Shown here piece after piece: positions 5,539 to 41,825 of a stretch of 64,000 nt of DNA (position 1 is its first letter; every line of letters starts with the position of its first letter). The DNA comes from an uncultured Gammaproteobacteria bacterium. Its GTDB lineage: Bacteria; Patescibacteriota; Microgenomatia; Levybacterales; GWA1-39-11. The notes beneath the pieces are model-generated. The model worked only from the letters and a program-made list of their open reading frames with translations. It did not search any database and was not told where the DNA came from. Position numbers and translations under genes: made by a program. The stretch is taken from the NCBI GenBank assembly GCA_964409875.1, contig CAYPEN010000002.1:142607-206606 (forward strand), read 5' to 3'.

Positions 5539-5959
5539 ATTTTAATTTTAATCCTTCATTGACAGCATTTTCAGTATTTGGAAGCAGATTTCCAAGTTCA
5601 TTTATTCTTTTGACCTGAATCCACTGTGGCATCGTCTCATCTGACCCGGCTAACTCACCTGAAAAAATTTTGACAAGAAATACGTTCCAATATGTTCGGA
5701 GTATTTCTCCACTCTTTCTCTTGATATCTCCTTCATAAATGGTGGGTAATTGCACCATTGATTCCTTGTCAGGCACGAGCCCTGTTTCTTCTTCAAATTC
5801 ACGAGCGGCAGCATCAATAAGACCTTCTCGTTCATCAAGCCTACCACCGGGAAGACCCCACACTCCGGTTAAGTGATGTGCTTTTTCTCCATGTTCAACC
5901 AACAGCACTGCGTTATTTTGGAAAGCAACGCAACCAACAGTATGCAATCTTTCATTCAT
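5531..5959 (-). CDS. NUDIX hydrolase (tandem paralog)
   Basis: Nudix box 'REGLIDAAAREFEEETGL'. It overlaps the downstream NUDIX gene by 8 nt. Confidence 0.8.
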   Translation of the reverse strand: MNERLHTVGCVAFQNNAVLLVEHGEKAHHLTGVWGLPGGRLDEREGLIDAAAREFEEETGLVPDKESMVQLPTIYEGDIKRKSGEILRTYWNVFLVKIFSGELAGSDETMPQWIQVKRINELGNLLPNTENAVNEGLKLKYA

Positions 5960-29461: not shown

Positions 29462-30243
29462 AAAGAGATGTGCTCTGCCTCAATTGTATCATCCAAAAGT
29501 TTTTTTGCGACCGTTTCAAAATTTATCTTGTCCCCGGTTGTAAAAAACATATCATTTTGCTTTTGCGTTGAAAGCAAGCGCTCGTTTTCCAAAACTTGCT
29601 TAAGCCTTCTTGCCACCGCACCCCCCGAATCGGCAATAAGAACTTCTTTCCCTACTATCGACTGAATCTGGCTTTTTATGAACGGATAATGGGTACACCC
29701 AAGCGCAATTGCATCGACATTTTTTGTGAGTAGAGGTCTTAGCTCATCATTCAGAATATCCATGACCTCTTCCGAATCGGTTTCCCCTTTTTCAACGAGA
29801 TCTTCAAGGTGTGTCTCGCCAATTGTAAACACTGTTCTATCGCTTGCAAACTTTCTAATTAACTCGTTCAAATATTCACTTTTTGAGGTAGCAGGAGTGG
29901 CAAAAACAGCAACTATACCTGTCTTCGTGGCCTCAGAAACAGTTTTTATTACCGGCACAACTCCAAGAATCGGAAAGTCGAATTCTCTCCTCATTTCCTC
30001 AATTGTCATTACCGTTGCAGTATTGCAGGCAATAACAACCGCTTTAATGTTTTTATTCGTAAAAAACTTAATGATTTTTTCCGCTCTTTGAGTCAATTCT
30101 TCTTTTGTTTTAGAACCGTACGGCATAAATGCCTGATCGGCAACATATATGGTGGTTTCATGAGGCAAAATGCGGTGAATTTCTGACAAAACGGAAAGTC
30201 CGCCGACTCCCGAATCAAAAACTCCAATGGGATTATTATTCAT
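29458..30243 (-). CDS. murI: Glutamate racemase
   Basis: 'IGVFDSGVGGLSVL' and 'ACNTATV'. Confidence 0.9.
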   Translation of the reverse strand: MNNNPIGVFDSGVGGLSVLSEIHRILPHETTIYVADQAFMPYGSKTKEELTQRAEKIIKFFTNKNIKAVVIACNTATVMTIEEMRREFDFPILGVVPVIKTVSEATKTGIVAVFATPATSKSEYLNELIRKFASDRTVFTIGETHLEDLVEKGETDSEEVMDILNDELRPLLTKNVDAIALGCTHYPFIKSQIQSIVGKEVLIADSGGAVARRLKQVLENERLLSTQKQNDMFFTTGDKINFETVAKKLLDDTIEAEHISL

Positions 30244-30298
30244 TAACAGAGTGTGGGTAAGATTTGCCTATTCATGAAATGTCATACTACTAAATTTA

Positions 30299-30499
30299 GT
30301 AGCTGGAGTGGGGTTCGAACCCACGACTTTTGCGTTACATTAACAATTTGCAGATTTTGTAGCTGGAGTGGGGTTCGAACCCACGACCTCAGCGTTATGA
30401 ATGCTGTGCTCGAACCAGCCGAGCTCTCCAGCCGTCTACTTACTGCAAATTGTTAATGAGCTCCGAATGCTGTGCTCGAACCAGCCGAGCTCTCCAGCC
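30299..30499 (-). repeat. Nested partial duplications of the tRNA-Met gene with a 16-nt inverted repeat
   Basis: 30465-30499 repeats the 5' 35 nt of the tRNA (30399-30433) exactly. 30301-30327 repeats its 3' 27 nt (30361-30387) exactly. 30338-30353 'cattaacaatttgcag' is the reverse complement of 30443-30458. Confidence 0.8.
30360..30433 (-). tRNA. tRNA-Met (anticodon CAT; could also be a lysidine-modified tRNA-Ile2)
   Basis: Hand-folded cloverleaf. Acceptor GGCTGGA/TCCAGCT, D-stem GCTC/GAGC, anticodon loop TTCATAA, T-arm GTGGG-TTCGAAC-CCCAC. No encoded CCA. There is an A31-C39 mismatch in the anticodon stem. Confidence 0.7.
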
Positions 30500-30579
30500 A
30501 TGAATTTCAATGGTGTTTATTGTACCATTTTGAACTCATAAATTCAAAATGTCGGACTCACTTTGAGGCAAAAAAATTA

Positions 30580-30666
30580 TGGCGGAGGAGGCGGGATTCG
30601 AACCCGCGAGTGCTTGCGCACGCATACTTTCCAAGCATGTGGAATGGACCACTATCCGACTCCTCC
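30580..30666 (-). tRNA. tRNA-Ser (anticodon GGA), type II with long variable arm, CCA encoded
   Basis: Acceptor GGAGGAG/CTCCTCC, anticodon stem CATGC/GTATG with loop TTGGAAA, variable arm CGTGC-GCAA-GCAC, T-arm GCGGG-TTCGAAT-CCCGC, 3' GCCA. Confidence 0.75.
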
Positions 30667-30740
30667 GAGCAAAGCGAGGAGGTGCTGGAGAACAATCTTG
30701 TTTGCAAGATTTTCATCCGACTCCTCCAAATTACGTCTAG

Positions 30741-31172
30741 CTATTTTACCAGGGATTGAATAATTGGCAAAGCTTTCTCAAAAACCGTCTTATCACTTTT
30801 AAATGTCAGCTTCTCTAAAACTTTCTCTACCTCAATCCATTGGACATCTTCCATTTCAAAATCGTGCTTAGTTATATCCCCACTTTTGTATTTCATTACA
30901 AAATAATATACGGTTTTTTTCACTTTTGCGCCCTCAAAATTGTACCAATACGTGATAGGCTCCAATGCTTCCAAAATTTCCCCTACGGCACCCGTTTCCT
31001 CCTCTACCTCGCGAAGCGCCGTTTCCTCTTTTTTTTCACCGTGAATTTTGTCTCCAATAAGTCCCTTTGGAAAACCCCATCCATGGTGGTAGGAATGTTG
31101 ACACAGCAATATTTCAATTCCCTTTTGGGATTTTCTAAAGACAACTCCCCCGGCAGAAAATTCAAATTTCAT
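30741..31172 (-). CDS. NUDIX hydrolase
   Basis: Nudix box 'GEKKEETALREVEEETGA'. The start is trimmed to 'MKFEFSAGG' so it does not overlap tRNA-Arg. Confidence 0.75.
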   Translation of the reverse strand: MKFEFSAGGVVFRKSQKGIEILLCQHSYHHGWGFPKGLIGDKIHGEKKEETALREVEEETGAVGEILEALEPITYWYNFEGAKVKKTVYYFVMKYKSGDITKHDFEMEDVQWIEVEKVLEKLTFKSDKTVFEKALPIIQSLVK

Positions 31173-31258: not shown

Positions 31259-31298
31259 TATCTTTCATGCAACCGCAAGATTTACTTGCAGATTCATG

Positions 31299-31383: not shown

Positions 31384-31459
31384 GGAACAAACGTGGGGGT
31401 GGATTGCAGAATATTCTTAAAAAGAATTACATGTGAACCCTCCTCCGAACCTGTGTGTG

Positions 31460-33458: not shown

Positions 33459-33600
33459 AATTTGGTGCGGAGTAAGCAGGGCTTGCTCACGCAACACCCA
33501 TTTCATTCGTGTTGCGGGGCCTAGAAGAAATACGAACATACTTTCTAACCCGTAACGATTCAGTCATTATACCAAATTTAGCTTAATTATTCTTCTTTAA

Positions 33601-34788
33601 TTGCATTTAAAAAAGTCCTATACTGAGAACATGCCAACTGTAGCAATACTCAAGCAGAATATTGAGGACATTTTAAAACAGCAAGGCTATACTTTAAGCA
33701 CGAATGGTAGTTTTATTCTTCCTTCAAGCGATAGAGAATCTTGGAGACAGGCGCATTATATAGCAAGAACAGAACGCCTGTTAGCAAAAGAGAATTTTAT
33801 TCTAAAAGGTAGCAGAATAGCTCAAAAGTATTTTCTTGATGGGAAAGATTTAAATATTGAAAAAATTGAGCCTAAATTGATTGAAGTTGAAGCAGAAACT
33901 GAATGGGAAGATTTATTTAAGTGGTGGAACTTAACCTGGTGGAGCCTACCTTATGAGAAAGCTTACGGCAGACAAATGAGATTTGTTGTATGGGATAAAT
34001 ACCACAATGCGCCTATTGGTCTCATCGGCTTACAAAGCCCAATACTTAGTTGGAGTGTTAGGGATAAATTTCTAAATATTCCATATGAAACAAGAGATTA
34101 TTGGGTCAATCAATCTTTAAGTGCACAAAGAATTGGAGCACTACCCCCTTATAACGACATTCTCGGAGGCAAGCTTGTTTCACTCCTTATGACATCAGAC
34201 ACAGTCAGAAAAGCCTTTAATAAAAAGTATAAAAACAAGGCCACATTGTTAAAAAATAGAGAACTACCATCAAGGTTGCTGTTTATTACCACAACAGGAG
34301 CATATGGGAAAAGTAGTGTTTATCAACGCTTAAAATTTAACCAAGAGGTAATTGCAAAGTTTATTGGATTTACTCAAGGAAGTGGAACTTTTCACATTCC
34401 AAACGCATTGTTTGAAGACCTGGTAAAGTATATGCAAAAGAGAGGCTATCCTGTAGGAAGAGGCTATGGCAATGGACCGTCTCGCAAGCTTAGAATTATT
34501 GACCAAGCACTTCAGCTTTTAGGATTTGCAAACGGAGCAACTCATGGCATTAAGAGAGCAGTTTATTTATTCCCCATGGTAAGAAATTTAGATAACGTAA
34601 TACAACAAGACAAAAGGCCTCTATGGGCAAAAAGAAGCGAAGAAGATTTAACTGAATTCTGGAAAAATAGATGGGCGTTTCCACGAGCTGAAAGAAATCC
34701 TGCATATAAAACGTATGTTAGCAAGGACTTTTTAAGTGAAATTATGTATAATCTAGAGCAATATAGGGCGTTAAGTCCTACATTGTAA
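33601..34788 (+). CDS. Island protein of unknown function (395 aa), first gene of the HerA/NurA operon
   Basis: Long uninterrupted ORF with a Trp-rich segment 'WEDLFKWWNLTWWSLPYEKAYGRQMRFVVWDK'. No motif I can assign. A 3-nt gap separates it from the next gene. Confidence 0.5.
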   Translation: MHLKKSYTENMPTVAILKQNIEDILKQQGYTLSTNGSFILPSSDRESWRQAHYIARTERLLAKENFILKGSRIAQKYFLDGKDLNIEKIEPKLIEVEAETEWEDLFKWWNLTWWSLPYEKAYGRQMRFVVWDKYHNAPIGLIGLQSPILSWSVRDKFLNIPYETRDYWVNQSLSAQRIGALPPYNDILGGKLVSLLMTSDTVRKAFNKKYKNKATLLKNRELPSRLLFITTTGAYGKSSVYQRLKFNQEVIAKFIGFTQGSGTFHIPNALFEDLVKYMQKRGYPVGRGYGNGPSRKLRIIDQALQLLGFANGATHGIKRAVYLFPMVRNLDNVIQQDKRPLWAKRSEEDLTEFWKNRWAFPRAERNPAYKTYVSKDFLSEIMYNLEQYRALSPTL

Positions 34789-34791
34789 AGG

Positions 34792-35931
34792 ATGAACGAT
34801 TCCTCAAATAATGATACATTCGGGGATTTACCTCAAGCATTAGTAGAAGAACTTCTTGGTAAAAGTCAGGAAGTAGGCAATGCATTGTATTCTTCATTTA
34901 GTAATATTCAAAATCAGAAGAAAAAATTCAGAGAAGACTTGGAAAAGGGAAATATTCTAAAAAGAGAGGCTGACTATAGCGTATCTGTACCGCCTACGAC
35001 TTGTGGAATTGATGGCGCCTATGCAAAGGAGGAGCTTTTATCAGTAGATTTGCTGGCAGCAGCCGCCGTCGCTCTTGAAGGAATAACCCCACCGTCTGAA
35101 ACAAGATTTTGGGAGGGCCCTCATCACCAGGTAATCATACAGGAAGAAAAACACAATCCCGACACTAACACAATCTTACGGGCAATAATGATAGGAATGG
35201 AACAACAGCTTGCGGAAAAAGCACCTCACGATGTTGTATTCATAGACGGTTCTTTAACTACGCCGTTAATTTTTTTCAATCAAGCAATTAATAAAGCTGA
35301 AGAATCAGATGATAATAGAGAACTTTCTATCTCTAAAAAACTTTTTGAGGTTTTACCTGAATCCTTAGCTTCATATCGTAAAGTTTTAGGCAATTCTCGA
35401 ACTGATAAGCTCTGGGTAGGGATGCCAAAATATACCACAAACAGAGAGATTGGGCGAAGTATGAAATGGGACCAGTCCTATGATGATAGAGCCTTGTTAA
35501 CTCTACTGTTAGCACCCGGTGAATTAACGACTCCACTCCCTTTCCAAAAACCATCTCAACCATGGCATTTAACTTACAAGCCGTGCGAGAAAGATATACA
35601 AAGCATTAAGGACTCTCTGGGCGGGTTGCGAGTTATTTATTATAGACCTCATGTGTGGACTCCTGCTCTTAGAATAGAGTTAAACTCTCACACTGCAGCC
35701 AATGAGTATCAGCTTGGCATGGTTCTGCAAGCTGTTAAATTTCAATGTGCTACTGCAGGAATAATTGAACCTTATCCTTTGTATATAGCAGATAGAATGG
35801 TTAAGTCCTTAGGCACTGGTCTACCAGCATTTAGACAGGTGGTTACTCGACAGATGGCAGAAGATTATGATGGCGATATTGGTGAAGTGTTTTTTACTAT
35901 GCATGGATATAGGACAGAACGTTCAAAATAG
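34792..35931 (+). CDS. NurA-like nuclease (RNase H-fold) candidate
   Basis: Two 'DG' catalytic-type motifs, 'CGIDGAYA' and 'VVFIDGSLTTP', with an acidic 'IIQEEKH' stretch between them, spaced as in NurA. It is operonic with a HerA ATPase. Confidence 0.5.
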   Translation: MNDSSNNDTFGDLPQALVEELLGKSQEVGNALYSSFSNIQNQKKKFREDLEKGNILKREADYSVSVPPTTCGIDGAYAKEELLSVDLLAAAAVALEGITPPSETRFWEGPHHQVIIQEEKHNPDTNTILRAIMIGMEQQLAEKAPHDVVFIDGSLTTPLIFFNQAINKAEESDDNRELSISKKLFEVLPESLASYRKVLGNSRTDKLWVGMPKYTTNREIGRSMKWDQSYDDRALLTLLLAPGELTTPLPFQKPSQPWHLTYKPCEKDIQSIKDSLGGLRVIYYRPHVWTPALRIELNSHTAANEYQLGMVLQAVKFQCATAGIIEPYPLYIADRMVKSLGTGLPAFRQVVTRQMAEDYDGDIGEVFFTMHGYRTERSK

Positions 35932-35960
35932 ATGTATAATACAAAAAATAAAGATGAATT

Positions 35961-37736
35961 ATGAAAGATGATAAAAAAAATATAGAAGAAGTCCTTAAGG
36001 ATGCTGAGCGAATTGGAGTTATAGGCTCACCCTCCTCTACAAGTAAGCTTACGCTGGATATTTTAGGAAGTGCTGTAAACAAAAAACTTGTAGGAGAACT
36101 TGGTTTATTTTCATACACACAAGAAGGTAGCAAGAATTATGCAATGGGTCAAATTACTGAAGTTGAGCTTCATAACATTTGGCACCAAGACCCAACAATA
36201 AGAAGCCTTATAAGACAAAAAGGGAGCATTAACCCTGTAAGCGAACGCCAGGATACCCATATTGGACAGATGACAATTAGCGCAGTTTTTCAATCGGCGG
36301 GAGATAGTATTTTTGAACCAAGCATTTTAGGTACAATTCCCGCAACAGGAACTCCAATAAATATCGTGTCTGACGACATACTAAACACCATTCTTTCTGC
36401 ATATAAAGACGAAATCTTTTATTTAGGGAATGTGTATGGCTCTAAACCAAAGCTACCTATGTGGTTTAAGCATTTTGATTCTGGAAAAGGTGGCGCAGGA
36501 GAAGCCTATCATCTTGGTATATTTGGGAAAACTGGCTCTGGTAAGTCTGTTTTGGCAAAGATGACAATAATGGGATACGCAAGACATAAGCAAATGGGAA
36601 TATTCATTCTAGACCCTCAGGGTGAATTTTCAAAAGGACTTAAAGATGGTGTGACCTCAGACACAATGAAAACAATTCTATGCAAAGAGACATTAGAAAA
36701 AATGGAAAGAGAATATGTAGTATATGACCTTAACAACATTGCTCTCAGTAGGTGGTCGCTTTTTGCTCAATTTTTAATAGAATTTAACTTTTTCTTTGAG
36801 CTCGGAATTAAATCCTCAGATTATCAAAAAATAGTTGCTGAAGACATAGAAGATTTTTGTAGAAGCAATTCAGCTTTAAAGCTATCTCAGCTCGATAATA
36901 ATGCATTAGCAAAAGTATTGGAACATTTAGATGCAAATATTCATCGTGTATACGCTGGAAAGCAATCAGATGGTGCAAATAGAGTGAAAGAATACATTGC
37001 AGAATGCCTTGAAGCTATAAAGAATAATACAGATAATAGGTTAGTTAATATTTGGACAAAAGTAGGTAAGCTTTTTGATAATAGTGGAGGCAAGAAAAAT
37101 CCAAAAGACATTGTAAACGAGGCAATAAAAGGAGGTACTAGCACGAGAAAACTTGTCTCGATTGACCTTTCTCAAAAACCATCTGACATTTCACCTTATG
37201 TATGGGACGAAAAAATAAAACCACTTATCATTGATAACTTTCTGAGCGACTTAGTACAAGCAGCAGAATACGCGTACAGAGATGATAAAAGCTTAAATAC
37301 TCTTGTTGTAATTGATGAAGCCCATAGACTTGCTCCAAGAGGAAGTTTAGAAAATGAGAAAAAAGAAAAAATACGCTCTACCCTTGTAGATGCGGTAAGA
37401 ACAACAAGAAAATATGGATTGGGCTGGTTGTTTATCAGCCAAACACTATCTAGTTTAGATAAGGACATAATTGAACAATTAAGAATCAACTTTTTTGGAT
37501 TTGGTTTGTCTATGGGTACAGAATTCCAGTCTTTAAGAGAGCTTGCTGGTGGCGACCCTGCTGCACTAAAATTGTATCAATCTTTTAGAGACCCACATAG
37601 CGCATTCGATAACAATCTACGCGAGTATGCGTTTATGTCATTGGGACCAGTTTCACCCCTCTCTTTTGCAGGCACACCCCTATTCCTATCCGTATTTACA
37701 TCCCCTGAGGTTTTCTTAAAGGAGAATAATCTATAA
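35961..37736 (+). CDS. HerA-family hexameric ATPase/helicase
   Basis: N-terminal HAS-barrel-like region. 'HLGIFGKTGSGKSVL' is the HerA HxxIxGxTGSGKS motif. Walker B 'VVIDEAHRLAP'. 'GLGWLFISQTLSSLD' is sensor-like. Confidence 0.8.
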   Translation: MKDDKKNIEEVLKDAERIGVIGSPSSTSKLTLDILGSAVNKKLVGELGLFSYTQEGSKNYAMGQITEVELHNIWHQDPTIRSLIRQKGSINPVSERQDTHIGQMTISAVFQSAGDSIFEPSILGTIPATGTPINIVSDDILNTILSAYKDEIFYLGNVYGSKPKLPMWFKHFDSGKGGAGEAYHLGIFGKTGSGKSVLAKMTIMGYARHKQMGIFILDPQGEFSKGLKDGVTSDTMKTILCKETLEKMEREYVVYDLNNIALSRWSLFAQFLIEFNFFFELGIKSSDYQKIVAEDIEDFCRSNSALKLSQLDNNALAKVLEHLDANIHRVYAGKQSDGANRVKEYIAECLEAIKNNTDNRLVNIWTKVGKLFDNSGGKKNPKDIVNEAIKGGTSTRKLVSIDLSQKPSDISPYVWDEKIKPLIIDNFLSDLVQAAEYAYRDDKSLNTLVVIDEAHRLAPRGSLENEKKEKIRSTLVDAVRTTRKYGLGWLFISQTLSSLDKDIIEQLRINFFGFGLSMGTEFQSLRELAGGDPAALKLYQSFRDPHSAFDNNLREYAFMSLGPVSPLSFAGTPLFLSVFTSPEVFLKENNL

Positions 37737-37955
37737 TTATTCAATTAAATCACCAATGTTCACGCCTAGTGCAACAGAAATTTTATATATAGTTGACAAT
37801 TTAGGGTCTCGGTGACCCATCTCAATCTCATTAACTGTAGTTAAATCCATTCCAATATCTCCTGCAAGGTCTTCTTGCGACAGTTTATTTTTATTTCTTA
37901 ATTCACGAACCTTATTGCCAAACTCCCTTTTTACAGCCTCATCTGAGATTGTCAT
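37737..37955 (-). CDS. XRE-family helix-turn-helix transcriptional regulator
   Basis: 'LRNKNKLSQEDLAGDIGMDLTTVNEIEMGHRDPKLSTIYKISVALGVNIGDL' is a typical Cro/C1 HTH. Confidence 0.8.
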   Translation of the reverse strand: MTISDEAVKREFGNKVRELRNKNKLSQEDLAGDIGMDLTTVNEIEMGHRDPKLSTIYKISVALGVNIGDLIE

Positions 37956-37965
37956 ATATTGTGTT

Positions 37966-38009
37966 TATGCCAAATTTCCTATAAAATGTCTTTGGCATAC
38001 ATGCCAAAT
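37966..38009. promoter_or_regulatory. Operator-like palindrome TATGCCAAA-N16-TTTGGCATA plus a third half-site ATGCCAAAT
   Basis: Perfect 9-bp inverted repeat at 37966-37974 / 37991-37999 and a third copy at 38001-38009. They sit in the divergent intergenic region between the XRE HTH gene and the zinc-ribbon gene. Confidence 0.5.
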
Positions 38010-38014
38010 AATGA

Positions 38015-38392
38015 ATGATGTTTTGCAATAATTGCGGTAAGGAACTAAGTGCAGAAAGCAGATTTTGTTCGAACTGTGGAACATCTATCCCTATAACAGA
38101 TAACTACAAGAAAAAATCCTCGAATATTACATTTGAAGCAATAAAACTAACTTCTAAAATCACCCTTGCGCCTGTCACCATCCCCTTTAGTATTCTGAAG
38201 TGGAGTCTCGGAATCAGAACTTTAAAGTGTCCTCGCTGCAGCAATAAAAAAATAAATAAAATGAAACCAGGCTGGGCAGAAAGTGCGATACCTGGTTTTG
38301 CACTTTTAGCTTTAGGGCCTTTAGGTCTTTTAGCAGGGCGTCCAAAAACCTTGTTCGTTTGCAAGCAATGCGGTTTCTCATGGGAAAGATAA
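38015..38392 (+). CDS. Double zinc-ribbon membrane protein
   Basis: 'CNNCGKEL...CSNCG' and 'CPRCS...CKQCG' Cys4 pairs flank a hydrophobic segment. Confidence 0.5.
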   Translation: MMFCNNCGKELSAESRFCSNCGTSIPITDNYKKKSSNITFEAIKLTSKITLAPVTIPFSILKWSLGIRTLKCPRCSNKKINKMKPGWAESAIPGFALLALGPLGLLAGRPKTLFVCKQCGFSWER

Positions 38393-38627
38393 GTAAGCTT
38401 GAGTAAGGGTTTTCATTTGTAATTTTTCCTATTTTTTTAGACTGAACTTTTGAAAAACCATTATGTGGCCAAAAACTCATTACGTCTATGCTAAAGCACT
38501 TGCATAATAGATTCTAATTGGAGGGGAATATTTAACCGTCGAATGTATATTTTCTATATAAAATACCATTCATAAACGCGCTTTTTTTAAGTTTTTCCTT
38601 AAAAACTGATATAGTTTATATATAGTA

Positions 38628-38656
38628 TTGACACAAATGTCTAATTGACTTTAAAT
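38628..38656 (+). promoter_or_regulatory. Sigma70-like promoter TTGACA-N17-TTAAAT
   Basis: -35 at 38628-38633 and -10 at 38651-38656, in an ORF-free AT-rich region. Confidence 0.35.
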
Positions 38657-38662
38657 CGATAA

Positions 38663-38766
38663 GATTTAAAATATACTTGTAAGCACGTCTCGGCGCCTAT
38701 CCATTGGAGCTGAGGACTTATCCAAAAGTTCAGAGACTGTGAGCGAAAGCTCGCGGTCTTTTTTTA
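38663..38766 (+). ncRNA. Candidate ~100-nt small RNA or 5' leader ending in an intrinsic terminator
   Basis: No ORF on either strand. A promoter lies upstream. The 3' end carries a GAGAC-...GAGC-GAAA-GCTC...-GTCT stem-loop followed by a T7 run. Confidence 0.3.
38733..38766 (+). terminator. Rho-independent terminator-like hairpin (GNRA tetraloop) + U-tract
   Basis: 'gagactgtgagcgaaagctcgcggtcttttttt'. Confidence 0.5.
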
Positions 38767-38773
38767 TGGCTTT

Positions 38774-39052
38774 ATGAATGATGAATTAGACATATTCGAA
38801 ACAAAGGATAAACAATTTACTCCATATCTGTTTATCCAACCTGACGTTAAGTTTTTAGGAACAAGAATCCAAGATTCCACTGTATTCTTTCGCTTCTCTC
38901 CTTCTCTCAGATGTAAAACCCTCTTAAATCTGTTTATCAGTAAGCAAGCACCACCTGTTCAAGGAAAGAGTTTGTTGGATGCGCTTGAAAGCTACAGAGA
39001 CTTAATTTTTGAGATGAAGATGAAGATGAAGGAAAAACATTATGAACCATGA
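38774..39052 (+). CDS. Hypothetical small protein (island cassette)
   Basis: 92 aa. Its stop overlaps the next ORF's start. Confidence 0.35.
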   Translation: MNDELDIFETKDKQFTPYLFIQPDVKFLGTRIQDSTVFFRFSPSLRCKTLLNLFISKQAPPVQGKSLLDALESYRDLIFEMKMKMKEKHYEP

Positions 39053-39503
39053 TTATTTAACAAAACAGGAACAAATTGAAATAAACCAAAGTCTTGCAGA
39101 ATCTTACAATTACAAAGATTCATATACAAAGGGTGATGACTTTGTCTTAGAAGGTGGAAATGATACTCGTAGATTAAAAGTAAATAGAGAGTTAACCCAA
39201 AGAAAAATAGAAGCTATTAATGCATTAAAAGAGTGTCGTGCCAGTACACCACCAGAAATAGTGTCAGATTTACTTTCACAGCTTTTTGAAAACTCTGATA
39301 CTGAACCAGGCTGGTGGCTTTACGTTGCCCAGCATTGGCCACCTAATCCCATAAATCGAGTAATAAAACTCATGCTCAAACTTCATCAAGGGAAATGGAT
39401 AACTTTCAGAGACCCAGCGAAATACTTCACATCCGAAATAAAACATAGGAAGCAAAGAATGATTTTTCAGAAAAAAAGAAGGGAGAAGCATGAAAAAGCT
39501 TAA
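39042..39503 (+). CDS. Hypothetical protein (island cassette)
   Basis: 153 aa with a basic C-terminus. Overlapping start/stop couples it to its neighbours. Confidence 0.4.
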   Translation: MNHDYLTKQEQIEINQSLAESYNYKDSYTKGDDFVLEGGNDTRRLKVNRELTQRKIEAINALKECRASTPPEIVSDLLSQLFENSDTEPGWWLYVAQHWPPNPINRVIKLMLKLHQGKWITFRDPAKYFTSEIKHRKQRMIFQKKRREKHEKA

Positions 39504-39753
39504 AAACTACACCCTTAAAGTCTACGAAAATGATGAAGTTGGTATGGTAGTGCGTACTCACTCAAAACGCTTAATTCTCACACGTTTACGCTCAATAAAC
39601 TGGACAAACAAGGCAATTAAAACCTACTTCAGAGTGTCTTATGGCAAGAAGAATGATACTCATGGAAAACTCAGCACTTTCTACAACGATGGTGATTTTT
39701 ATAACAAAGAAGACTTGGATTGGGCTTTTGAAGCTTTTGACTATGAAGATTGA
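39490..39753 (+). CDS. Hypothetical small protein (island cassette)
   Basis: 87 aa. Overlaps the upstream gene by 14 nt. Confidence 0.35.
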   Translation: MKKLKNYTLKVYENDEVGMVVRTHSKRLILTRLRSINWTNKAIKTYFRVSYGKKNDTHGKLSTFYNDGDFYNKEDLDWAFEAFDYED

Positions 39754-39928
39754 CGGATTACACCATCTAGATAATAAAGCTATCGATGAGTTTACTCAGC
39801 TCTATTACAAGGAGTATGGAATTAAACTCAATAAACAAGAGGCTACGGAGCTTGGAAACAGATTTATACGTTTTATGAGAGCTATATATGCGGATGCCCT
39901 ACCAAAGTCAAAAAGGGTTGACAAGTAG
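39743..39928 (+). CDS. Hypothetical small protein (island cassette)
   Basis: The start is trimmed to the internal Met 'MKIDGLHHLD' (ATGAAGATTGA overlaps the upstream stop). The longer ORF 39641.. would overlap the upstream gene by 113 nt in another frame. Confidence 0.3.
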   Translation: MKIDGLHHLDNKAIDEFTQLYYKEYGIKLNKQEATELGNRFIRFMRAIYADALPKSKRVDK

Positions 39929-39964
39929 AGTAAGGAAGTCCTACGATGAAGCTATCTTGAGGCT

Positions 39965-41698
39965 ATGAACGAACAAAAAAATATAAAATACTTTGGTTAT
40001 ATACGTAAAAGCTCTGAGGACAATCGCGAACGACAAGCGGCATCCCTTCCTGAGCAGAGGTATGCCTTAGATTTATTAAAAACTAAGCTTAATCTGAAAA
40101 TTGTAGACGTACTTGATGAATCTAGAACAGCTCATGAACCAGGAAGACCCACTTTCAACTCCATGTTAGAGAAGATATCAAACGGTGAAGCCAACGCGAT
40201 TCTCACATGGCACCCTAATAGGTTATCTCGAAACCCTGTTGATACAGGTCACTTGCTTTATCTCATGGACGCAGGAAAACTAGTTGAAATCCGCACTCCT
40301 TCACGTGCCTATCATAATACGCCTGAGGATAAGTTTATGTTGGGACTTGAATTTGGTATTAGCAAGAAAGACTCGGACGACAAATCCATTGTTGTAGAAC
40401 GTGGGCTCGAAGGGAAAGCAAGGAAAGGATGGAGACCTGGAGTTGCTCCTCAAGGCTATCTAAATGATAAGGGAACCGAAAGTGGAGAACGTAAAATATA
40501 CTCTGACAACGACCGCCTACCACATATCAAAAACATATTCTCGCTGTTTTACAATGGAACACCTGTAATTGAAATTCATCGAATTGCCCACGAAGATTGG
40601 CATTACCTTACGCGTCAACATAAAAGAATGGGAGGTAAACCACTTTCAATAAGCATGATATATTCAATACTGACAAACCCATTTTACTGTGGGAAATTCG
40701 AATACCCTCTTGGAAGCGGAAAATGGTATGAAGGAGCTCATGAGAAGGTGGTAAATGAAGAAGTATTCAGTGAAATACAAGTTAAATTAGGACGTAGAAG
40801 CCCTTACAAGGTGAAGCATAACGGTTTTGCCTACAACGGGAGCGCAATTCGTTGTGGAGATTGCGGTTCAAGCATTGTTGCTGAACAAAAAAAGCAGTGC
40901 ATTTGTTCTAACTGTAAAACTAAATTTTCTATATCACATAAAAATCCAGACACCTGTATTAAATGTGGTTCTTTAATCGAGAGCATGTCAAACCCTAAGT
41001 TGCTTCATTACATCTATTATCGATGTGGTAGAAAAAAGAATCCAAAATGCCTACAAAAAGCAGTACAACTAACAGAACTTGAGAGGCAAATTGACAAAAA
41101 ACTAACTCAAATTGAAATTTCTCCAGTGTTTGTAGACTGGGCCATAAAACAAATTCAAAAAATGAATGAGAGTAATAAAGATTTTGAAGAAGCAACATTT
41201 AAAGGATTAAAGGCAGCGCACGATAAGTGCAGAATAAAACTTAATAATTTATTACAACTAAAGATATCACCAGAAAACGTAAATGGTAGTCTACTATCAG
41301 ACTCAGAATACAAAACCCAAAAAGAAACTTTGGAATCTGAGCTTAAGATTATTGAAAAACAACTTGAAGACACTGACAATCAAATGCTTCAATCAAATAG
41401 CGACACAGAAAAGGCTTTTAATTTTGTTTCCAGAGCTAGAGAACGATTTTCTCTGCCAGATATCAAGATTAAGCGTGATATATTCTTGGGATTAGGGTTG
41501 CACCTAACACTTAAGGACAAAATAATCGATTTTGACAGTCCAAAGTATATTAAATCTCTTGAAAAAATGAAGAAAGAAGCTCCAATTATTGCAGAGAGGG
41601 TCGCACCTGAAAAAGAGATTGAATTGAAAGCAAAAATGGAGGAAAAGTTTGCGACAATTCCAAGTGTGTTGCGGAGTAAGGAGTTGAACCTTATCTAG
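39965..41698 (+). CDS. Large serine recombinase (resolvase N-domain + recombinase domain + zinc ribbon + coiled coil)
   Basis: Catalytic N-terminus 'YFGYIRKSSEDNRERQAASLPEQ', a recombinase domain, a Cys-rich zinc-ribbon ('CGDCGSS...CSNCKTKF...CIKCGS') and a long coiled-coil C-terminus. Confidence 0.9.
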   Translation: MNEQKNIKYFGYIRKSSEDNRERQAASLPEQRYALDLLKTKLNLKIVDVLDESRTAHEPGRPTFNSMLEKISNGEANAILTWHPNRLSRNPVDTGHLLYLMDAGKLVEIRTPSRAYHNTPEDKFMLGLEFGISKKDSDDKSIVVERGLEGKARKGWRPGVAPQGYLNDKGTESGERKIYSDNDRLPHIKNIFSLFYNGTPVIEIHRIAHEDWHYLTRQHKRMGGKPLSISMIYSILTNPFYCGKFEYPLGSGKWYEGAHEKVVNEEVFSEIQVKLGRRSPYKVKHNGFAYNGSAIRCGDCGSSIVAEQKKQCICSNCKTKFSISHKNPDTCIKCGSLIESMSNPKLLHYIYYRCGRKKNPKCLQKAVQLTELERQIDKKLTQIEISPVFVDWAIKQIQKMNESNKDFEEATFKGLKAAHDKCRIKLNNLLQLKISPENVNGSLLSDSEYKTQKETLESELKIIEKQLEDTDNQMLQSNSDTEKAFNFVSRARERFSLPDIKIKRDIFLGLGLHLTLKDKIIDFDSPKYIKSLEKMKKEAPIIAERVAPEKEIELKAKMEEKFATIPSVLRSKELNLI

Positions 41699-41825
41699 GA
41701 GATTATGAGCCTCCTGTGCAGCCGTACACTACCCCGCGATACAGACAAATAGTATACTTCAAATTAGCTTCAAATGCAACCACAAGACTTGTTTTTCACA
41801 CGATTTTCTAGTAGAATACAATCTT

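Follow-up and report, generated by a model that had tools for sequence, protein, structure and literature searches.

Organization of the nested tRNA locus

The 64,000-nt stretch of DNA analysed here (the window; positions 142,607 to 206,606 of contig CAYPEN010000002.1, assembly GCA_964409875.1) carries, on its minus strand upstream of murI, an intact tRNA gene with the anticodon CAT that lies nested inside a second, interrupted copy of itself. The best matches of the MurI protein place the host in the candidate phylum Levyibacteriota (Microgenomates, candidate phyla radiation (CPR)/Patescibacteria). The nested locus occupies positions 30499–30299 of the window, and its elements, all on the minus strand, are described in the direction of that strand.

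The locus opens with the outer 5′ half (30499–30465), a 35-nt exact copy of positions 1–35 of the inner tRNA. It is the relic of positions 1–34 of the original tRNA(CAT) gene plus one mutated base, and it now lies within the 5′ leader. The insert starts immediately afterwards with the linker GGAGCT (30464–30459), which follows a pattern, RRGCT, present in all lineages with a nested locus (AAAGCT, AGCGCT and AGAAGCT). There follow the left arm of a 16-bp helix, CATTAACAATTTGCAG (30458–30443), a spacer, TAAGTAGAC (30442–30434), and the inner tRNA itself (30433–30359), which ARAGORN calls at 75 nt and which matches Rfam family RF00005 with 52.2 bits. A second spacer, AAAAT (30358–30354), leads to the right arm, CTGCAAATTGTTAATG (30353–30338), which is 100 % complementary to the left arm (16/16). 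The gaps separating the tRNA copies measure only 21 and 31 nt; the insert as a whole is a cassette of approximately 125 nt, of which the non-tRNA part amounts to approximately 50 nt.

The outer 3′ half is 39 nt long and begins with the base T36. It consists of two parts. The older one, TAACGCAAAA (30337–30328), begins at position 36 and extends into the anticodon stem (3′ strand). The other (30327–30299) reproduces exactly, over 29 nt, the T arm and the acceptor 3′ strand of the inner tRNA, and appears to have been converted. A palindrome, CTACTAAATTTAGTAG (30287–30302), overlaps the 3′ end of this half and forms the native trailer; the same trailer is found 3′ of the uninterrupted gene in relatives. 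Through this palindrome, the final bases of the outer tRNA are paired with its trailer, and equivalent hairpins of other sequence lie 3′ of the tRNA, directly before murI, in the related loci L093, L094, L097 and L219. The start of murI is 56 nt 3′ of the outer half. A sequence-only reading of this DNA had already placed every one of its elements correctly, save that it gave 27 nt, not 29 nt, for the exact 3′ copy.

Amongst 263 tRNAs in 2.2 Mb of compared DNA, flanking inverted repeats reach at most 9 nt, with the exception of the nested Levyibacteria tRNA genes, in which they are 11–19 nt long. Since the repeats flanking other tRNAs do not exceed 9 nt, the 16-nt repeat is not a product of chance. 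The predicted fold of a 221-nt region has a z-score of −5.15 relative to shuffled sequences; in it the arms are paired, the outer acceptor strands are paired and the inner tRNA is looped out, in agreement with the earlier suggestion that pairing of the arms would loop out the complete tRNA.

The inner tRNA is identical in sequence to the uninterrupted gene of two relatives, L087 and L097. It is taken to be the working gene, encoding either an elongator tRNA-Met or a tRNA-Ile2 (with lysidine), two possibilities that are not distinguishable here.

Ancestral state and distribution in relatives

Orthologous loci of relatives, designated here by L numbers, were collected via their MurI proteins. 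Plain loci with a single tRNA are found in L002/L087–L090 (five assemblies, MurI 80 % identical), L093 (72 %) and L097 (68 %). Their leader (…GGTACAAT…) and trailer (TAAATTTAGTAG…) match the flanks of the outer halves in the window. Because the plain relatives have the same outer flanks, the outer halves represent the original gene, still in place, and the intervening DNA is an insert. Alignment of the orthologous loci thus identifies the plain, single tRNA with the same flanks as the ancestral state, and bears out the earlier proposal of a tRNA gene interrupted in its anticodon.

The nested layout is also present upstream of murI in five further lineages, L001 (MurI 89 % identical), L278 (75 %), L222 (72 %), L219 (70 %) and L094 (69 %), although only the right half is seen in L222 and L278. 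L094 is the same locus as L095, L096 and L215, and was recovered in two Logan runs as well. The nested lineages derive from different samples and different assemblers.

The exact repeats of 35 and 29 nt could confuse assemblers that use short k-mers, and the layout might then be an artefact of repeated k-mers or of strain mixtures. Identical MurI was found in the Logan assemblies of SRR11845633 and SRR24204751, and both contigs contain, in order, the inner tRNA, AAAAT, the right arm, TAACGCAAAAG, the 3′ copy and murI. This provides independent support, from two runs, for the right half of the exact locus. Both contigs do break in this region, but only inside the 35-nt repeat, where they end because unitigs were assembled at k = 31. 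For the left side of the locus, an identical left arm and spacer are present in L219. The complete nested structure lies within single contigs, made by differing assemblers, in L001, L219, L094 and L095 (the last a Logan contig of 52 kb); in these the repeats do not reach the length k. An assembly artefact is therefore hardly credible.

The insertion site can be read from the relatives. L219 and L094 keep …GCATTCA before the insert, and four of the six nested lineages keep TAACGC after it; with these sequences kept at the junctions, the cut falls between the anticodon bases A35 and U36. Later changes at the junction have altered A35 to G in the window and C34 to T in L001.

A MurI tree distributes the nested lineages over three subclades, with plain loci interspersed among them; L094 represents the earliest-branching subclade. 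All five nested relatives carry in the outer 3′ half, at the same place, a homologous 24-nt insertion in the T loop (…GACGACG…hairpin…AATGCGA / GAATTG…), and in L219 and L094 the D stem of the outer 5′ half is interrupted by a 23-nt insertion that both share. Because these secondary lesions are shared, the disruption of the gene predates the split of the lineages concerned. This argues for a single old origin of the nested layout, and the plain loci within the clade are best read as reversions or replacements. A 7-nt candidate remnant of the outer 5′ half in the related locus L084 is more likely an unrelated leader hairpin.

The T-loop insertion lies at 5895–5930 in L001, 1105–1140 in L219, 2436–2461 in L094, 93–125 in L222 and 65–100 in L278. 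It forms a 6-bp hairpin whose arms vary in sequence and mostly remain paired (ATTCTG/CAGAAT, TCTGCC/GGCAGA, and TTTGCT/AGCGAA with one U.G). Short inserts consisting of CGACG and a hairpin recur near tRNAs in these genomes, and are possibly a family of miniature palindromic insertions.

Two alleles of the tRNA occur, each identical across lineages. Type A is found in the window, L087, L094 (inner copy), L097, L219 and L222, and type B in L001 (inner copy), L084 and L093. The cassette of the window is far closer to that of L219 than to that of the nearest relative, L001. The trailers of the inner copy and of the native gene are similar at three to four of five positions, and both are AT-rich; this is a weak basis for proposing that the flank was duplicated together with the gene. 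In metagenomes, a scan for the 5′ half without continuation into an intact anticodon gave no matches, and a scan with a generic CAT anticodon-arm pattern gave 120 loci from diverse bacteria with no new nested case (L215 being a record of the L094 locus).

Conservation and covariation of the arms

The arms are identical at 15–16 of 16 positions between the window and L219, L222, L278 and L094, at a locus-wide nucleotide identity of 70–72 %. The left arm and the 9-nt spacer of L219 are the same as those of the window, and the right arm has the same sequence in L222 and L278. In L094, a single base pair differs and has changed on both arms (A-U to U-A), and the helix extends to 19 bp. L001 has a strongly divergent helix of 16–17 bp, which is again perfect. 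Overall, the helix measures 16 bp in the window and 16–19 bp in the relatives.

Covariation was assessed on a sample of four sequences. Pairing is retained in 63 of 64 cells, and seven of the 16 pairs change on both sides; none of 500 shuffles matched this result and no slid register came close. RNAalifold also retains the helix around the inner cloverleaf. On these comparisons the arms look selected.

Decay and overwriting of the outer halves

Of the six nested lineages, four have T at outer position 36, one has A and one has C. In four of the six, the outer anticodon stem has CGCAA or CGCGA instead of CGCTG as its 3′ strand, and the outer D stem is interrupted in two (L219 and L094). Since position 36 is variable and the stems are broken, the halves, if joined, cannot give a CAU anticodon and an intact anticodon arm. 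The outer acceptor strands are complementary in all six lineages; three changes in them preserve pairing (U.G twice, and G.U to G-C once).

The window differs from its relatives. It is the only nested lineage without the T-loop insertion, the D-arm insertion is also absent, and no other nested lineage has outer halves that match the inner gene exactly. In the window the outer 3′ half is a mosaic, in which the relic-type TAACGCAAAA, of a type common to L278, L219 and L222, is followed by 29 nt of inner type; an inner-type sequence would have read GCTGAGG in place of GCAAAAG. The relic-type counterparts of TAACGCAAAA are TAACGCAAAGG in L278 (GCAAAGG) and TAACGCGAAGG in L219 (GCGAAGG). Gene conversion of the outer halves from the inner gene would account for both the exact repeats and the apparently diverged GCAAAAG. 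The sequence-only reading was correct in noting that GCAAAAG differs from GCTGAGG, but took this for divergence of a copy; comparison with L278 and L219 indicates that it is not the decay of a copy, and that the segment is a surviving piece of the old outer half.

Promoter and predicted folding of the precursor

A promoter-like site, TTGAAT-17-TACAAT with an extended −10 TG, is located at 30519–30547 on the minus strand and ends 20 nt upstream of the outer 5′ half. It is the only such site on the minus strand in 30150–30750, and none was found inside the insert in the same scan. Both nested and simple loci have the conserved motif GGTACAAT upstream. With the sole promoter-like site upstream of the outer 5′ half, the inner tRNA would be derived from a precursor that includes the outer 5′ half and both arms.

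A perfect 9-bp hairpin, CATTTTGAA-TTTATGAG-TTCAAAATG (30526–30551, minus strand), is inserted in this promoter region and provides the −35-like hexamer. L097 has a different hairpin, of 11 bp, at the same place in the promoter, and there is none in L001, L087 or L093.

In a precursor of this kind each tRNA half is present twice, a situation that favours mispairing. Partition-function folding was used to obtain the probability of the inner acceptor stem. In the window it is 0.92 for the wild type, 0.00 when either arm is shuffled or both are deleted, 0.53 when the arms are swapped and 0.84–0.99 when the spacer is shuffled. Shuffling the right arm lowers the probability from 0.76 to 0.10 in L001 and from 0.98 to 0.02 in L219. 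In L094, which has the most decayed outer halves, the corresponding values are 0.98 and 0.79, so that this locus scarcely depends on the helix in the folding model.

Origin and role of the insert

We consider it probable that the locus reflects an old cassette insertion that left an inner working gene, two relic halves and an RNA helix that acts as a clamp or in processing. The native tRNA(CAT) gene upstream of murI would have been split long ago at A35/U36 by a cassette of approximately 125 nt, in which a short linker and an arm of 16–19 nt precede a complete copy of this tRNA, with the complementary arm behind it. The native promoter would now drive a single precursor consisting of the outer 5′ half, arm, tRNA, arm and outer 3′ half. 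The inner tRNA would presumably be released by ordinary end-processing, with RNase P acting at the 5′ end and RNase Z or exonucleases at the 3′ end, and the relic outer halves would act as leader and trailer. In the RNA, the arms may pair, probably along with the outer acceptor strands, and close off the inner tRNA as its own folding domain, keeping the duplicated halves paired with each other and not with the inner tRNA. The layout has been inherited within a clade of Levyibacteria, and would have been repeatedly remodelled by gene conversion between inner and outer copies; its loss by deletion between direct repeats would yield a plain gene with native flanks. The window may represent a conversion stage, in which the relics have been overwritten to give exact copies of 35 and 29 nt.

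The helix may also act as a processing stem, similar to those that flank rRNAs. In the RNase III stems of bacterial rRNA, as here, complementary flanks form a long helix that encloses a stable RNA in its precursor; at the present locus, by contrast, the helix is of only 16–19 bp around a single tRNA, and cleavage is supposed by analogy. We know of no such processing-stem arrangement for a single bacterial tRNA.

Several points weigh against this explanation. L001 alone supplies six of the seven compensated pairs, and its cassette is very different (arms 9/16 identical in register, and the other inner tRNA allele); this cassette may have been replaced, or inserted independently, instead of arising by compensatory drift. 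L219 has one uncompensated change, which gives A.C on the tRNA strand and G.T on the other, and since the remaining pairs are all Watson–Crick, the helix is not marked as one of RNA rather than of DNA. The arm sequence itself is kept, and not pairing alone, which could equally point to a transposase end or to a site of protein binding. The distribution of nested and simple loci, and that of the A and B tRNA alleles, is patchy and does not follow the MurI tree, from which it follows that the history of the locus includes gene conversion, lateral replacement or both. The folding model is a weak and crude one, in which the acceptor stem of a plain locus with 60-nt flanks also has a probability of 0.00. 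Finally, co-transcription, processing, pairing at the level of RNA and the clamp or processing role are all steps that we infer. The sequence comparisons do establish the anatomy of the locus, its insertion site and ancestral state, its inheritance in six lineages, the conserved and compensated sequence of the arms, the decay undergone by the outer halves and the mosaic nature of the outer 3′ half.

A more far-reaching version of the proposal is that the tRNA within a tRNA is itself a selected architecture. In this view, a conserved helix stands in place of the anticodon loop of a tRNA-like scaffold, and the tRNA would mature out of the loop that this helix closes. This scaffold, composed of the outer acceptor stem, the hairpin-extended T arm and the helix, would direct processing or persist as a functional two-piece RNA, and the cassette would move as a unit that both disrupts and replaces the resident gene. 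We regard this as unlikely, while giving it some weight; if true, it would add a new, self-compensating class to the insertions known in essential RNA genes.

Of the rival explanations, the most serious is that the insert is a miniature transposon, or the stump of a larger element, with terminal inverted repeats of 16–19 bp and a passenger tRNA, site-specific for the anticodon of tRNA(CAT). The arms would then be conserved for recognition by a transposase and through recent or repeated insertion (homing), and insertion into an essential gene would be survivable because of the passenger tRNA. The perfect inverted repeats at the very ends of the insert fit such an element, as does the conservation of arm sequence beyond pairing. 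So does the patchy presence and absence across the tree, and L001, the closest relative by MurI (89–90 %), has different arms, different spacers and an inner allele that is native elsewhere, which gives its insert the look of an independent or replaced insertion. The short insert with perfect terminal inverted repeats likewise resembles a miniature inverted-repeat transposable element; it differs, within the DNA scanned, in that the locus has a single copy, no target-site duplication, no partner transposase and co-varying arms. The flanks (…TTC(G)GGAGCT| and |TAACGC) show no duplicated target, no second copy of the arm is present in the 64-kb window or in the 2.2 Mb of loci, and no transposase or homing endonuclease is encoded in or beside any of the six cassettes. 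Viral contigs gave 55 single-arm matches, about the number expected by chance for 15.5 specified bases, none of them two-armed, and no matches to the tRNA 5′ half; a distant BLAST search of the region against a phage collection also found no match. The 24-nt T-loop insertion common to the outer halves of five lineages places the disruption before their split. The change from A-T to T-A on both arms between the window and L094, in a cassette that is otherwise identical, is predicted by selection for pairing but not by independent transposon ends. This origin is thus an unlikely one. More specific candidates were also considered and rejected: a mariner-like insertion at TA fits the right junction but not the left, the separate subterminal hairpins of an IS200/IS605-type insertion are absent, as is the GTTRRRY core of an integron attC site, and a tandem triplication with internal deletions does not fit linkers that are unlike tRNA halves and complementary to each other.

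The sequence-only reading had proposed two further origins, stacked attachment (att)-site scars and an intron-containing or permuted tRNA. For the former, two integrase elements would have inserted at the anticodon loop, each duplicating one half of the gene (one the 3′, the other the 5′), before shrinking to a few dozen bases. tRNA genes are well-known sites of integration, which yields a regenerated gene together with a displaced fragment (PMC4383910, PMC9897764). Other tRNAs in these genomes would fit this pattern: an 8.2-kb island with a large serine recombinase abuts an initiator-like tRNA nearby, and in L001 and L097 the tRNA-Ser(GGA) is followed by a 17–19 nt copy of its own 3′ end. A tyrosine recombinase gene also lies 1.7 kb upstream, although it is syntenic in relatives regardless of the state of the locus. 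As in genomic-island tRNA fragments, an intact tRNA has partial copies of itself nearby, the gene is broken in the anticodon loop, a part of tRNA genes known for integration, and the site is empty in relatives; here, however, there are both 5′ and 3′ fragments, broken at the same phosphodiester bond (35/36), a whole inner copy and a conserved, co-varying helix of 16–19 bp. There is no integrase in the 21 and 31 nt between the copies, perfect co-varying complements would not be expected of two scars, and the inner tRNA of L001 is a single foreign, co-adapted allele in both halves rather than a chimera, which two independent elements would not supply. Stacked scars are on this evidence improbable. 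Still less probable is a bona fide disrupted tRNA, in which the insert is an intron or the halves are those of a split tRNA, ligated into a second tRNA or persisting as a two-piece tRNA-like RNA. In archaeal split tRNAs, the sequence that comes after the 5′ half can pair with the leader of the 3′ half (for reviews of such genes, see PMC4033280 and PMC3218864). The present layout resembles that of the archaeal split and intron-containing tRNAs (Nanoarchaeum, Caldivirga) in that a long helix would join the halves beside the anticodon stem; the complementary outer acceptor strands of all six lineages, and the stem kept by the T-loop hairpin insertion in most of them, are also consistent with a disrupted tRNA. 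It differs from these archaeal genes in its bacterial host (murI, murD, ftsH), in an ‘intron’ that holds a functional tRNA, and in the absence of a bulge–helix–bulge: by inspection, a continuous 16-bp helix lies beside an asymmetric loop of approximately 9 × 3 nt, with no 3-nt bulges 4 bp apart. A group I 5′ splice site needs a U before it, and here the preceding base is A35. Patescibacteria do have tRNA introns at the same unusual anticodon position, 35/36, and the study that describes them deals with group I introns only (PMC13011429). The present insert, in the same phylum, differs from these also in having no group I core and in that rescue is by a carried gene copy and not by splicing. 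Rfam searches of 30200–30600, at the gathering threshold and at E ≤ 10, found tRNA but no group I intron or other family, and only approximately 50 nt of the insert is not tRNA. ARAGORN in intron mode, at its default threshold, reported the inner tRNA alone; at an 80 % threshold it made inconsistent Cys calls (ACA or GCA anticodons), which were disregarded. In addition, the anticodon is not restorable, the anticodon stem being broken in four lineages and the D stem in two, so that the joined halves are not a tRNA. Nor is the gene permuted, since the 5′ half precedes the 3′ half.

Genomic neighbourhood and other tRNA-associated features

Downstream of the nested locus are murI, murD, trpS and ftsH. 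Upstream are tRNA-Ser, a NUDIX-like open reading frame (ORF), tRNA-Arg, tRNA-Ser, tRNA-Arg, a conserved ORF of 183 aa and a tyrosine recombinase of 288 aa. The last is the nearest recombinase gene (33042–32176) and lies past four other tRNAs; it is syntenic in relatives, at nested and simple loci alike.

Further upstream, a segment of approximately 8.2 kb (33473–41660) is inserted relative to the closest relative, L001, and abuts the 3′ end of the initiator-like tRNA. It encodes DruA (33601–34788), NurA-like (34792–35931) and HerA/DUF87-like (35961–37736) proteins, small ORFs and a large serine recombinase of 577 aa (39965–41698). The GC fraction falls from approximately 0.43 to 0.36–0.38 across the segment, which looks like a defence island integrated at a tRNA. 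The initiator-like tRNA (41668–41738, minus strand; CGCGGGG…, anticodon CAT) is 71 nt long with a short D arm, and is also present in L001 (2220–2290). It is called by ARAGORN and falls under the Rfam gathering score. The final 31 nt of the serine recombinase ORF overlap this tRNA on the opposite strand.

Partial copies are also associated with other tRNAs in these genomes. The leaders of the tRNA-Ser genes, at 30715–30727 and 31435–31443 of the window (both minus strand) and also in L001, L087 and L097, contain a 9–14 nt copy of the gene's own 5′ end, 51–64 nt upstream. After this copy come a small hairpin and a degenerate version of the acceptor 3′ strand (e.g. CACCTCCTCGC); the element is conserved across species and, from its sequence, looks like a decayed mini pseudo-tRNA. 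The tRNA-Ser(GGA) of L001 (5600–5680) and L097 (2311–2424) is followed by a hairpin-rich insert of 61–96 nt and then by the 17–19 nt duplicate of the tRNA 3′ end, an att-like arrangement; the duplicate is absent from the window. A 12-nt exact copy, ATCTTGCGGTTG, of the anticodon-arm/variable region of tRNA-Arg(CCG) lies at 31270–31281 (plus-strand coordinates), 24 nt upstream of the minus-strand gene, and each of the two tRNA-Arg genes of L001 is preceded, at a distance of 37 nt, by a copy of its own 5′ end.

An unrelated metagenome contig, L181 (Ga0105047_10060378, approximately 469–620), contains a tRNA(CAT) and, 20 nt further on, a partial copy of which the last 32 nt are exact. The anticodon arm of the partial copy is swapped for a different hairpin, and a GIY-YIG-like ORF lies directly upstream. 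The plain relative L002 (CAZMSF010000066.1) carries the record label ‘uncultured Gammaproteobacteria’, but has a Levyibacteria-type locus (MurI 80 %, same tRNAs) identical to contigs of other assemblies; the contig is probably mis-binned.

Significance

In the literature on nested, disrupted or split tRNAs and on anticodon-loop insertion, no bacterial tRNA nested in the anticodon of its own disrupted copy was found, within the limits of the library searched. The locus is best filed as a variant amongst disrupted tRNA genes and tRNA-fragment duplications, one that is rescued by a carried whole gene and not by splicing or att regeneration. For annotation, it is relevant that tRNA finders report the inner gene only, and that the half-copies can be mistaken for att sites or pseudogenes. 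The single precursor of approximately 215 nt would also offer a simple system for studying the avoidance of misfolding, the disruption and reversion of tRNA genes, and gene conversion between nested copies.

Known insertions into essential tRNA genes are survivable either because they splice themselves out, as do group I and archaeal introns, or because they supply the missing piece, as do islands. The locus described here would represent a third way, in which the insert carries a whole replacement gene and uses the promoter of the gene that it disrupts. The arrangement has long been stable in several genome-reduced CPR lineages, in which its helix looks selected.

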